Positions 33,420 to 55,564 of a stretch of 58,466 nt of DNA are shown piece by piece (the stretch's first letter is position 1; each line of letters opens with the position of its first letter). A model generated the notes under the pieces. That model had not been told where the DNA came from. It saw only the letters and a program-made list of their open reading frames with translations, and did not search any database. This stretch comes from a virus (Duplodnaviria; Caudoviricetes), in IMG/VR virus record IMGVR_UViG_3300018914_000069, positions 1 through 58,466 of that record, one strand, 5' to 3'. The translations under genes and the position numbers were made by a program.

Positions 33420-33690
33420 TAGGTAGATTTAAAAGAGGGGAGAGGTGAGTAAGTTCACCAATCCCCCTAAGACTATAACCGTAGCGCACCCATATGCCTA
33501 CGTGATCGTGTCCATGACTAGATGGACGAGATATTATAAACGACAAGGTGGGGCGGCGTATCCCACATCTCTTTTAACCATCTACGATCAATGATATTTC
33601 CTCGTAATGGTGCGATAGTAACCTTTCTATCCTCTTGTCGTTTACTTCACTTTCACAAACTGCTCATGAGAGCATTCACATTCATCTATA
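33420..33690 (-). ncRNA. Candidate structured RNA in the HU-phoH intergenic region
   Basis: 11-bp stem 33537-33547/33634-33644 enclosing three hairpins, plus further hairpins. Confidence 0.45.
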
Positions 33691-49077: not shown

Positions 49078-49437
49078 ATGGAGGATGATCCAATGGAAGC
49101 AGTAACTTGTTTCAAGTGTGAGGGATCAGAATATTTGCCGCAGTACAAACATAAAGACGATGGAATCTGCTATCCGTGTAAGGGGACAGGGGAACTTAAG
49201 CGGGCTACAATTGAAAAGGCAGGAATACTGTTTGAATACATGGTCGCAAATGAACGTTCGACAAAAAAGGATCTGATAGTGAAGATTATACAACTCGTGA
49301 ACGAGAATGACGAATTAGAACGGGAATCACAACATGCCAAAAGGGATTTTGATTTTGAGACTGCATACTATTTTGATACGCAGATTGCAGAGAATATGAC
49401 CAAGATACACAAGCTGCGGAAAGAAGCTGGAATATAG
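49078..49437 (+). CDS. Zn-ribbon protein (CxxCxG repeats)
   Basis: CFKCEGS and CYPCKGTG. Confidence 0.55.
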   Translation: MEDDPMEAVTCFKCEGSEYLPQYKHKDDGICYPCKGTGELKRATIEKAGILFEYMVANERSTKKDLIVKIIQLVNENDELERESQHAKRDFDFETAYYFDTQIAENMTKIHKLRKEAGI

Positions 49438-49578
49438 AAGGCCATTGAGATGGCCTTTTTCTTTTTGTCCATTAGACGAGAAAACTTAAAAATAACAACC
49501 AAAAATAACTTGTAAACCATATCGAAACATGGTACAATAAGGACAGTTAAGGAATACATATTTCAGGAGGCGTTACAA

Positions 49579-49704
49579 ATGTCCGAAACAAAACTAAAAT
49601 TAGCTGAAAAATTCCTGATTGAATTTATCCAGAAAGGTGATTTATCGTCAGAAGACGAGCAAGCTCTTTTCGAAGCAATACGGGTATTAAAGGAAAATAC
49701 ATAA
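49579..49704 (+). CDS. Small protein (41 aa, not in the ORF track) ending at the hammerhead
   Basis: TTGTAA-17-TACAAT promoter, AGGAGG RBS, MSETKLKLAEKF... Confidence 0.6.
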   Translation: MSETKLKLAEKFLIEFIQKGDLSSEDEQALFEAIRVLKENT

Positions 49705-49768
49705 GCCACCTGACGAGCTAGTGAGAGTCTAGCGAAACGCCTAGAAATAGGCGTAGTGGTAAGTATTT
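49695..49768 (+). ncRNA. Type I hammerhead ribozyme
   Basis: Stem I GCCAC/GUGGU (plus AAAUAC/GUAUUU), core CUGACGA 49710-49716, stem II GCUAG/CUAGC, GAAA 49734-49737, stem III CGCCUA/UAGGCG, cleavage triplet GUA (cut after 49755). Confidence 0.92.
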
Positions 49769-49790
49769 AATTACAAGGAGGTATATACAT

Positions 49791-52241
49791 ATGAAATACC
49801 AAACGGGAACAATTGTAAAAATGGAAGGCTGCCCAAAGAAAGTGGATTGCGGAGTATTTGAGATTGACCGCCTTTGGAATGAAAACGAATCCGCATTTGT
49901 CTATAAGCTTAAAAAAGATGGTACACGTTCTAAAAACGGGCTTAATATCTTTAAAATTTCCCATATGGATAAGTACGGAAAGATTATCAATAGGGAAGAA
50001 CTTGCAAATGCCATTTCTCAAGTAAACAAGACACTTAAAGAAACTAAAGAAAATCAAACTATCTATACATATGTAGAAACAGACCGAAAAAAGCTGCAAA
50101 AAGGCGATTACATCAAAGTAGTTAAGCCTATTCATACAACGTCCAGCATTTACGCAATCCCAGCAGGAGCCATTTACACTATTTCCGCTTGTGAAGGTCA
50201 AAACGCTACAAGATACGTTTTAAAGCGTATCGGTAAAAAAGGGCAAGTATTAAGCGGTAACTCTGGAGCATTTAATATTGTTAGTTTTTCCGCTCAAACT
50301 GTAGAAAAACTGATTGCGGAAGGATATATCATCATTGTTGAGCAAGTACAGCAGATTAGAAAAGAAATGAGCCAACAACAAGAAGAACAACCAACAGCCG
50401 AACAGGTAACAGAACAAGCAGATAACCAAGCAGAAGCGCAAGAGGAGCCGACAAGCAACGAAACGAACACAGCAGAGCCAGTGAAAAAGCATCATGTCCA
50501 ATCTGTACAGGTGACACGTTTAGAGGGCTACAAATGGGATTGTAAGACGCTAACAGTCTCCACAATTGCAGAAGCTAACAAAGTCATTCAGGAAATGGCG
50601 TGGGCTGCGCCTTCTGATGGTTCGTATGACAAAACGCAATTTGTAATAACCTTTACAGATGAGAACACATATACAGGTAGAATTGACTTGCAATACAAAC
50701 ATACTAGCGGCTATGACTTAGAAAAGCATGTAATGAGACACATTAACTACATGATGGAACAGGGAACAGATGAACAAAAGGAACATGGCAGAGATTTCCT
50801 CAATAGGTATGTGCTTAGTGAGGAGCCTGTCAAAATTGAAGAAGTGAGAACAAAACCGCCTGCGCAAGCACAAGTAGAACAAGAACAGCAAGTCGAAATA
50901 ACAGGCACAACAGATGACAACGAGCTTCTTGTTCTGACTAATGAACAGTCCGCAGAGTTGGAAAAACGTTTCACAAACAACAAGGCAACCAAACAGGAAG
51001 AGGAACTATTAACCAAGTACCATTTGCAATTACAGGAACAGGCTATGAAATACAAGGCAACATTACCAAGCAACTATGAAGAATTGATTAATGATGAAAA
51101 CGTGTATAAAGTTCTTTCTTGCTTCCCTTCTGATGGTGGATCGGCTGGAGTGTATGAGATTGAAATAACAGGCAAGCAGTTAAAAGATGACTTATGGACT
51201 GGGGTATTTATTCTAAATATCATTACACCATTAGAAGAACAGCACGACACGACAGAAGAGTTTGAGGAGATTAGCAGCGAAGAGCAGACACAAGGAGAAC
51301 AAAGCGACACAGACAACGGAATAGCAGTTACAATTAATCAGGAATTACAGGGTATCGAAATTGCTTTTACTGAAAAGCCATTGCAAGAAGTCATCGTACA
51401 ACTAAAAACAAACGGTTTCCGCTGGTCTAAGTTTAAAAAAGTTTGGTATGCTAAACAAACAGGAAAAACACTTGCATTTGTTCAATGTTTGACAGGAGAA
51501 AAGGCGAACGACATCCATACAGAACAGGTAAAAACAGAGCAGCCTTATTCATATCCTGAAATTAATATTGATGATCTAGACCAATACACGGTTTCTGAAC
51601 AATTGCAAAGCCGCCTTAATTCTTCTTCCCTGTTTAATGTTGATTATCAGAAAGATTGTGAATTGACATTCCGAAACATTCAAAGCGAAGCTTTAGAAGT
51701 TCTTTCGCTAACAGATGATCCGCGTTTGACATATTACATAAAAAAATATGTACAATCATTTAAGCGGCGATATTATGAACAATACTTGAAAATACTTAAT
51801 CATAAAGCGTCTAACCCATCTTGGGCAGTTACTGGACGTGGTGGGATAAACGTAAGACGTTATAACAAAATGCAGGATAGATATGACAAATATCTTGGGG
51901 AATCAGTGAAACTGTCCGAAGAGTTTAAACGGAAGATGCAAGAATTCAAAAGGCAAATACGAGACGAAAAGCAGCGACAATGGCGCGAAAAAATGAATAT
52001 CAATCTAAGTGGAACAGAACTAAAAGAAATGTTTACAGTAGAGAAGAAACCTGTCACAGTGGCAGGATATACGGAAACAGTTAGGACATACAACTATAAC
52101 GGGTACACGATTGCAAAAACGTGGGGGATGTGGCGCATTTTTAAGAACGGAAAAGAGATTGATACAACACTCAAAACAACAGACACCCTAGACACGGCAA
52201 AAAGATATGTATTGATGCTCTGTGAGCAAGAATCTGCTTAA
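49791..52241 (+). CDS. Large polyvalent-type early protein (LPD25-like and DUF3560-associated-like domains)
   Basis: GSYDKTQFVITF...YTGRIDL; IEIAFTEKP...LKTNGFRWS....WY; PSWAVTGRGG; E/Q-rich linkers. Confidence 0.6.
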   Translation: MKYQTGTIVKMEGCPKKVDCGVFEIDRLWNENESAFVYKLKKDGTRSKNGLNIFKISHMDKYGKIINREELANAISQVNKTLKETKENQTIYTYVETDRKKLQKGDYIKVVKPIHTTSSIYAIPAGAIYTISACEGQNATRYVLKRIGKKGQVLSGNSGAFNIVSFSAQTVEKLIAEGYIIIVEQVQQIRKEMSQQQEEQPTAEQVTEQADNQAEAQEEPTSNETNTAEPVKKHHVQSVQVTRLEGYKWDCKTLTVSTIAEANKVIQEMAWAAPSDGSYDKTQFVITFTDENTYTGRIDLQYKHTSGYDLEKHVMRHINYMMEQGTDEQKEHGRDFLNRYVLSEEPVKIEEVRTKPPAQAQVEQEQQVEITGTTDDNELLVLTNEQSAELEKRFTNNKATKQEEELLTKYHLQLQEQAMKYKATLPSNYEELINDENVYKVLSCFPSDGGSAGVYEIEITGKQLKDDLWTGVFILNIITPLEEQHDTTEEFEEISSEEQTQGEQSDTDNGIAVTINQELQGIEIAFTEKPLQEVIVQLKTNGFRWSKFKKVWYAKQTGKTLAFVQCLTGEKANDIHTEQVKTEQPYSYPEINIDDLDQYTVSEQLQSRLNSSSLFNVDYQKDCELTFRNIQSEALEVLSLTDDPRLTYYIKKYVQSFKRRYYEQYLKILNHKASNPSWAVTGRGGINVRRYNKMQDRYDKYLGESVKLSEEFKRKMQEFKRQIRDEKQRQWREKMNINLSGTELKEMFTVEKKPVTVAGYTETVRTYNYNGYTIAKTWGMWRIFKNGKEIDTTLKTTDTLDTAKRYVLMLCEQESA

Positions 52242-55413: not shown

Positions 55414-55487
55414 GGATCTGTAGCTCAAAGGATGAGCAGGCGGCTCATAACCGCTAGGTCTTGGTTCGATTCCAAGCAGATCCACCA
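55414..55487 (+). tRNA. tRNA with CAT anticodon, most like tRNA-Ile2 (lysidine type, reads AUA)
   Basis: Acceptor GGATCTG/CAGATCC, anticodon arm GGCGG-CTCATAA-CCGCT, T-loop TTCGATT, encoded CCA. Confidence 0.9.
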
Positions 55488-55488
55488 T

Positions 55489-55564
55489 GCGCCTGTAGCT
55501 CAGCGGATAGAGCAATCGCCTTCTAAGCGATGTGTCAGGGGTTCAAATCCCTTCAGGCGCACCA
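55489..55564 (+). tRNA. tRNA-Arg(TCT)
   Basis: Acceptor GCGCCTG/CAGGCGC, anticodon loop CTTCTAA, T-loop TTCAAAT, encoded CCA. Confidence 0.95.

Follow-up and report, generated by a model that had tools for sequence, protein, structure and literature searches.

A predicted type I hammerhead ribozyme between two phage genes and a pistol ribozyme at the orthologous site of related prophages

Hammerhead ribozymes linked to bacterial prophages were published in 2011 in all three permutations, including arrays that flank genes, and a role in the processing of long phage transcripts to messenger RNAs (mRNAs) of gene length was proposed for them (Perreault et al. 2011, PMC3088659). A lasting link to phages has also been described for type I and type III hammerheads of bacterial intergenic regions (PMC6155905). 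The pistol ribozyme was discovered by searches in the neighbourhood of genes associated with hammerhead and twister ribozymes and is linked to phage genes and to Firmicutes (Harris et al. 2015, PMC4604425); that ribozyme classes share gene contexts is ascribed to Weinberg et al. 2015 in PMC4604425 and PMC6765202. Here we describe a locus in a stretch of 58,466 nucleotides (nt) of viral DNA (Duplodnaviria; Caudoviricetes; IMG/VR record IMGVR_UViG_3300018914_000069), referred to below as the window, in which a type I hammerhead is predicted between an open reading frame (ORF) of 41 amino acids (aa) and a gene of 816 aa, and in whose closest relative a pistol ribozyme lies just upstream of the homologous gene.

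Phage hammerheads between genes are already known, and the element of the window adds a member to them. As in the examples of Perreault et al., which often occur several per genome and in one case just upstream of ardA, it has a canonical core and is placed between phage genes; their account, however, stresses type II for bacteria, whereas the element described here is of type I, with stems II and III closed (PMC3088659). The same permutation with an open stem I is found in the type I hammerheads of Schistosoma and of newt satellite DNA, although these belong to a eukaryotic repeat context and depend on an extension of helix I that contains an internal loop and is matched to loop II (PMC6155905), whereas such a distal extension is not conserved in the phage class. 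Self-cleavage within a 5' untranslated region, leaving a 5'-OH on the coding fragment, is known in the Bacillales from glmS of Bacillus subtilis, where it is ligand-dependent and destabilising by way of RNase J1 (PMC3997798), whereas the site in the window is without a ligand domain. The pistol ribozyme (RF02679) has an unrelated fold and core, but its self-cleavage also yields a 5'-OH and a cyclic phosphate and, at the loci compared below, would give the shared leader almost the same 5' end. Finally, synthetic insulators of the RiboJ type, which were engineered from a type III satellite hammerhead, carry the ribozyme just before a ribosome site, so that variable upstream RNA is trimmed to a constant leader.

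The hammerhead core consists of C3 U4 G5 A6 N7 G8 A9, of G12 A13 A14, of the pair A15.1-U16.1 and of H17, which is any nucleotide but G (in part after the methods of PMC3088659). Direct reading of positions 49695-49768 on the + strand gives all core boxes (CUGANGA, GAA, A15.1-U16.1, H17) and three helices with no deviation at any core position, as listed here:

49710-49716, + strand: core box CUGACGA, with C at the free position N7
49705-49709 with 49756-49760, + strand: stem I, 5 pairs, with a C-G pair beside the core
between the proximal and the distal pairs of stem I, + strand: internal loop of 4 nt on one side and 2 nt on the other
49695-49700 with 49763-49768, + strand: distal part of stem I, six A-U-rich pairs, not conserved in the class
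49717-49721 with 49729-49733, + strand: stem II, 5 pairs with a 7-nt loop, closed by G10.1-C11.1
49734-49736, + strand: core box GAA
49737-49743 with 49748-49754, + strand: stem III, 7 pairs with a GAAA loop, beginning with A15.1-U16.1 (A49737-U49754) and followed by a C-G pair
49755, + strand: A17, with the predicted cut between A49755 and G49756

The pairs that adjoin the core are all standard ones (10.1-11.1 G-C, 1.1-2.1 C-G and 15.1-16.1 A-U), and in RNAfold the hammerhead three-way junction is both the minimum free energy (MFE) fold and the centroid fold (-24.2 kcal/mol, z -3.76), with none of 200 shuffles equally stable. A descriptor scan for the core boxes and the three helices over the whole window found this site, with stems of 5, 5 and 7 pairs, and no other on either strand; a loose core pattern gave noise only. 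In 300 dinucleotide shuffles of the window, both strands included, 26 matches appeared at stems of at least 3/3/3 pairs and a single one at stems of at least 4/4/4. The first-pass annotation had noted every core nucleotide and three stems, an internal loop in stem I, an overlap with the stop of the 41-aa ORF and a cut after A49755 leaving a 35-nt leader with AGGAGG before the gene at 49791. All of this was borne out by our reading and by the predicted fold, and the stop codon was found to lie inside the stem I internal loop. That a complete type I hammerhead lies between the two cistrons is thereby confirmed at the level of sequence and predicted fold.

The element is a member of a large viral class of type I hammerheads situated between phage genes. 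A pattern comprising the core, the first stem III pairs and free loops was used to search the viral contigs of IMG/VR and retrieved at least 118 loci. Among the 134 pattern matches listed, 109 combine at least 4 pairs in stem I with at least 3 in stem II, 16 reach the length for stem I only, 4 for stem II only and 5 for neither. The eight nearest sequences among the matches listed have the loop II type and A-rich flanks in common with the window, and one of them shows a compensatory change of a stem II pair. From these eight a covariance model, R1, was built, which matched 156 times in 100 of the at least 118 loci (883,649 bases), several contigs having six or seven matches.

The sequences so collected were aligned to the model, a procedure that favours the structure; in the resulting alignment A3 (150 viral sequences, 140 of them distinct, from loci L057-L156 and with the window left out) 98.4% of the cells are paired, as against 31.5-38.6% when the partners are slid, and 13 of 15 pairs change on both sides, with a covariation score that none of 500 shuffles reaches. 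A second covariance model, R2, was made from the 150 A3 sequences and again excluded the window. Both models find the site, R1 with a single match in the window (49696-49769, 70.7 bits, E 1.5e-20) and R2 as its sole match over 86,065 bases (50.5 bits, E 3.2e-10); these scores are partly circular, as the training set was retrieved with a pattern derived from the window site, and the circular part comprises the core, the first stem III pairs and, for R1, the loop II type, while stems I and II contribute independently, as do the flanks and the spacing.

The class also indicates which parts of the element are typical. Counting the window, 11 of 123 hammerheads carry a distal stem I helix of 5 or more pairs, as against 314 of 2460 controls with shuffled flanks; the six distal pairs of stem I are not a class feature. 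The nearest relatives repeat A-rich unpaired flanks on both sides of a short stem I together with a loop II of the UGARANU type, and these are plausible candidate partners of a tertiary contact, which in hammerheads brings about rapid cleavage at physiological Mg2+. Some viral contigs hold arrays of type I hammerheads, R1 giving seven matches in L110, six each in L072 and L154 and further arrays in L130 and L139. Close variants of the window element itself were not found: a near-exact pattern had no match in the viral contigs, blastn of 49400-50000 against GenBank phages returned none, no contig of another sequencing run spans the hammerhead while contigs of the likely source run span it unchanged, and R1 found none in 61 Brevibacillaceae genomes, where the best 80 of several hundred candidates per genome were scored.

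The check with the Rfam hammerhead models that the first-pass annotation had proposed turned out negative, with no match at the gathering score in the window. In detail, RF00163 (Hammerhead_1) and RF02276 gave no match at E<=10, and a sensitive search of 251 nt gave only a mis-registered match to Hammerhead_3 (13.6 bits against a cut-off of 48.5, E 4.1). The same library, however, has no match in eight viral loci (78,855 bases) in which R1 finds 26 hammerheads. Because these models miss 26 hammerheads elsewhere, the failure at the window is not counted against the ribozyme and is read as a blind spot of the models for this class; had Rfam alone been consulted, the hammerhead of the window would have been wrongly discarded.

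Placement was examined for 139 unique viral hammerheads against 2780 random positions in the same loci. The stop of a frame of at least 40 codons lies 6-12 nt 5' of the CUGA box in 65 of the 139, as against 91 of the 2780 random positions, and a Shine-Dalgarno sequence with a start of at least 40 codons follows within 120 nt 3' of the cut in 102 of the 139 (median 32.5 nt), as against 835 of the random positions. The window is typical in both respects, with a stop at -8 to the CUGA box and a start 35 nt past the cut. In another 30 of the 139 it is the UGA within the core box that ends the longest frame, and the conserved UAA-like flank of the class may be a stop codon, a tertiary-contact element or both. 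The surroundings of the ribozyme in the window, on the evidence of sequence where nothing else is given, are these:

49436-49459, + strand: terminator-like hairpin with a 10-pair stem and a T run, ending the preceding unit after the ORF at 49078-49437; consensus match only
49510-49538, + strand: promoter-like site, TTGTAA and TACAAT separated by 17 nt, with TG before the -10 box (extended -10); 9 of 12 consensus matches
49579-49704, + strand: ORF of 41 aa, AGGAGG before its ATG, stop 8 nt 5' of the CUGA box
49756-49790, + strand: 35-nt leader of the predicted 3' product (5'-OH), with AAGGAGG at 49775-49781
49791-52241, + strand: gene of 816 aa, ATG at 49791

The terminator-like and promoter-like sites suggest a transcript whose start lies 5' of the small ORF and which extends across the ribozyme. 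No terminator-like site was found by the consensus scan between 49704 and 49791, and the 41-aa ORF has no Pfam and no PHROG match. Essentially no structure is predicted in the leader (-5.7 kcal/mol, which shuffled sequences equal), and the ribosome site of the large gene is equally open in the predicted folds of the uncut and the cut RNA.

Two further ideas were dropped. Since the ribosome site is open before and after the cut in the predicted folds, an unmasking of this site by cleavage was rejected, and with it that form of the earlier proposal that cleavage changes stability or translation of the large gene. A coupling to MazF through UACAU sites, also proposed earlier, was likewise rejected: UACAU is not enriched on the + strand of the window (99 sites where about 111 would be expected), and 19 of 98 neighbouring sites are no more than 90 nt apart.

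The evidence for a function of the cut itself comes from the relatives of the large gene. These are few, with 10 proteins in a large protein set, one contig that is the same among viral and genome contigs, 4 of 61 Brevibacillaceae genomes and none in the metagenome contigs. The closest relative, in Brevibacillus gelatini DSM 100115 (locus L003), is 70-72% identical over its full length, and just 5' of this homologue Rfam finds a pistol ribozyme (RF02679; L003 2906-2977, 62.7 bits against a cut-off of 34.5). Between L003 and the window similarity is at chance level across the promoter, the small ORF and the ribozyme body; continuous DNA similarity starts at 49756, the first nucleotide past the hammerhead cut, and the next 10 nt are identical. 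L003 has a promoter-like pair, TTGACC/TATAAT, at the place equivalent to 49510-49538, and its small ORF of 61 aa is not homologous to the 41-aa ORF of the window.

Pistol cuts at a conserved G-U step, G53-U54 (PMC6154101). When this step is mapped to the two unpaired Rfam columns that separate P3 from the 3' strand of P2, the cut of the B. gelatini pistol falls at L003 2972/2973, which would place it 1 nt further into the common leader than the hammerhead cut. The element of the window itself is not a pistol, as it has no Rfam pistol match.

A closely similar pistol is present in a second Brevibacillaceae genome (L007 2105-2174, - strand, 70.9 bits against 34.5). It directly follows the stop of a 205-aa ORF and lies 29 nt before an ATG preceded by AAGGAGG; this ATG opens an ORF of 86 aa, after which comes a long ORF with a domain related to residues 497-603 of the window protein, that is, a partial homologue. 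Pistol occurs in only 2 of the 61 Brevibacillaceae genomes, both of them among the four that hold a relative of the gene. Each ribozyme is preceded by a different ORF, the one in the window having 41 aa, that of B. gelatini 61 aa and that of L007 205 aa (L003 2584-2612, 2709-2894; L007 2797-2180, - strand), while the leader past the cut is similar in all three loci. Taken together, the sequences of the three loci point to a mosaic joining at the ribozyme.

The leader was also sought by itself. In the viral contigs the leader pattern occurs in 47 loci, of which the B. gelatini contig is the only relevant one, and no hammerhead was found upstream of the other matches. In the metagenome contigs the pattern of leader plus start has one match (L177 2377-2415), with the same 10-nt leader start, AAGGAGG and ATGAAATA. 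In this contig the 10-mer is at the end of the upstream ORF and overlaps its stop, neither Rfam nor R2 finds a ribozyme, and the downstream protein has no recognisable relation to the window protein over the 24 codons (MKYKIGDKVKWNDGKHYKDDKRID) before the contig ends.

As to the nature of the large gene, the 816-aa protein has a PHROG match at residues 487-579 and a match to LPD25 (large polyvalent protein associated domain) at residues 258-319 which, at 15.8 bits, is below the cut-off of 27. The earlier label of a polyvalent protein is weakly supported: in its favour, a homologue carries LPD25 at 30.1 bits and the UniRef name of the B. gelatini homologue is 'Large polyvalent protein assoc...', whereas the window protein itself stays below the cut-off. 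Gp185 of Geobacillus virus E3 is 40% identical over the C-terminal 37%. The prophage to which the locus belongs is of the Brevibacillus type. Two sludge-metagenome runs (X4, X5) contain a relative of the gene with 38-45 differing letters over the 365-431 nt compared; it matches from 49776 (AAGGAGG) onward only, and the 11-33 nt before this point differ and are too short to judge a ribozyme.

We consider it probable that a complete type I hammerhead cuts at 49755/49756, that it uncouples two cistrons and that the position of the cut is the property under selection. According to this model a transcript would start near 49510-49538 and carry the 41-aa ORF, the ribozyme and the 816-aa gene. The ribozyme would fold once the 3' strand of stem I is made and would cut between A49755 and G49756. 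The upstream product would then keep the small ORF with its stop and terminate, with a 2',3'-cyclic phosphate, at the end of the ribozyme body, whereas the downstream product would be a monocistronic mRNA with a 5'-OH, a fixed and unstructured leader of 35 nt and a strong Shine-Dalgarno sequence. In this way the cut would free the mRNA of the large gene from its upstream context and fix its 5' end.

Cleavage is taken to be constitutive because the core is complete and there is no ligand-binding insert, and we infer transcription, cleavage in vivo and an effect of the cut on stability or translation. The earlier suggestion that self-cleavage separates the two cistrons is in part supported, since it fits both the class-wide placement and the orthologous pistol, the cleavage being a prediction. 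In related prophages an unrelated ribozyme, behind unrelated upstream sequence, would give this leader the same end, which argues that the position of the cut, and not the sequence of the ribozyme, is under selection. Because the break in homology falls at the cut, a natural insulating role comparable to that of RiboJ may be assumed. Among the possible functions we put definition of the mRNA end and insulation in first place, followed by destabilisation and then by stabilisation of the upstream fragment.

Several observations weigh against this interpretation. All Rfam hammerhead models fail on the site (RF00163, RF00008, RF02276 and the clan), and, with no variants of the window hammerhead found, it has no covariation of its own, to which the model-guided alignment and the partial circularity of the R1 and R2 scores have to be added. 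No RNA run was found among the sequencing runs that contain the stretch. The placement of the pistol cut at the unpaired G-U of the Rfam consensus is inferential. In the MFE fold of 49545-49830, positions 49564-49571, the Shine-Dalgarno region of the small ORF, pair with 49705-49712, that is, with the 5' strand of stem I and the start of the core, and this pairing could compete with the active fold, although the ensemble frequency is 0.0002 and z is -1.77. Finally, neither Rfam nor R1 or R2 finds a nearby ribozyme in the weaker relatives L008 and L009 or at gp185 of Geobacillus virus E3, so a ribozyme is not obligatory for the wider protein family.

There are, however, other ways in which a real ribozyme could act. 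The most serious of them, which we nevertheless regard as unlikely, is that it destabilises the mRNA of the large gene, the 5'-OH serving as an entry for RNase J1 and the 816-aa protein being held at a low level compared with the upstream ORF. RNase J1 does degrade the 5'-OH product that glmS self-cleavage leaves in Bacillus subtilis (PMC3997798), and the relatives of the gene are found in Brevibacillus, a member of the Bacillales. A constitutive ribozyme would, on the other hand, be an odd means of lowering expression, and the leader holds a perfect AAGGAGG 19 nt from the new 5' end. Protection against 5' decay is known from 5' stabilisers, namely Shine-Dalgarno sites and initiating ribosomes that lie close to the 5' end. 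Since a strong Shine-Dalgarno sequence at this place may block RNase J1, destabilisation is doubted.

It is still less probable that the upstream RNA is the main beneficiary, with the ribozyme body and the cyclic phosphate shielding the mRNA of the small ORF from 3' exonucleases in place of a terminator. The start of the ribozyme right past a stop codon in 65 of the 139 viral hammerheads would agree with such a role, as would the lack of a terminator-like site between 49704 and 49791; but the upstream ORFs are wholly different in the window, L003 and L007, whereas the leader and the downstream gene are conserved, and the conserved spacing to the next start points downstream as well.

Conditional cleavage, in which the free ribosome site of the small ORF would pair with the 5' strand of stem I and the CUGA box and block the ribozyme, so that cutting would report translation of the small ORF, appears very improbable: the pairing of 49564-49571 with 49705-49712 that suggests it is a single long-range one with the low ensemble frequency and z given above, and it cannot be general given that stem I sequences vary freely in the class. 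Least probable of all is that the site merely resembles a hammerhead, by chance or through decay, and forms ordinary mRNA hairpins without cleaving, for although the Rfam hammerhead models give no match, they also miss the 26 hammerheads of the eight other loci, and this explanation is opposed by a core without deviation, by a chance expectation of about one per 300 windows even at looser stems, by 50.5-70.7 bits against the phage hammerhead models, by a placement typical of the class and by an independent ribozyme, the pistol, at the orthologous site.

Beyond the cutting of this one transcript, a wider and more tentative suggestion, which we hold to be possible but would not favour, is that unrelated ribozyme classes are interchangeable phage cassettes that give a conserved leader one exact 5'-OH end, the upstream modules having been joined at the cut by mosaic recombination. 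Each upstream module would consist of a promoter, a small ORF and a ribozyme body and would be fused, at exactly the cut, to a gene cassette that stays the same, the 3' strand of the ribozyme doubling as the first nucleotides of the mature mRNA. An interchange of ribozyme classes has been reported for hepatitis delta virus (HDV)-like circular RNAs (PMC7936874); a phage ortholog in which the ribozyme class is replaced and the cut is kept was not found in the literature, in a limited search that does not prove its absence.

The prophage carries a second non-coding RNA, the skipping-rope RNA (RF02924) at 33540-33641 on the - strand (70.6 bits, E 4.5e-15; cut-off 36.7), which is structured and without an assigned function. 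In addition, two adjacent transfer RNA genes are located at 55414-55484 and 55489-55561 on the + strand (66.0 and 71.1 bits), with the anticodon loops read from the alignment as CAU and UCU.

For the search for phage ribozymes in general, the Rfam 15 hammerhead models stay under threshold on 26 of 26 clear type I hammerheads in eight viral loci, and a negative scan is therefore not evidence of absence; the regular placement of the class, with a stop abutting stem I and the next start about 32 nt past the cut, may be used by annotation pipelines. The role of many self-cleaving ribozymes of phages is still called open (PMC6765202, PMC6155905), and here the locus offers a clean comparison, namely the same gene and leader behind a hammerhead and behind a pistol, with predicted cuts 1 nt apart and unrelated sequences upstream, which makes the question of the cut position testable by simple reporter swaps. 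If the ribozymes were indeed interchangeable cassettes, the conserved 10-nt start of the leader and the 5'-OH chemistry would themselves be functional, perhaps by protecting the mRNA from 5' decay in concert with the strong Shine-Dalgarno sequence or by allowing escape from host sensing of 5'-triphosphates, and the pair of hammerhead and pistol would constitute a natural experiment on the purpose of phage ribozymes.

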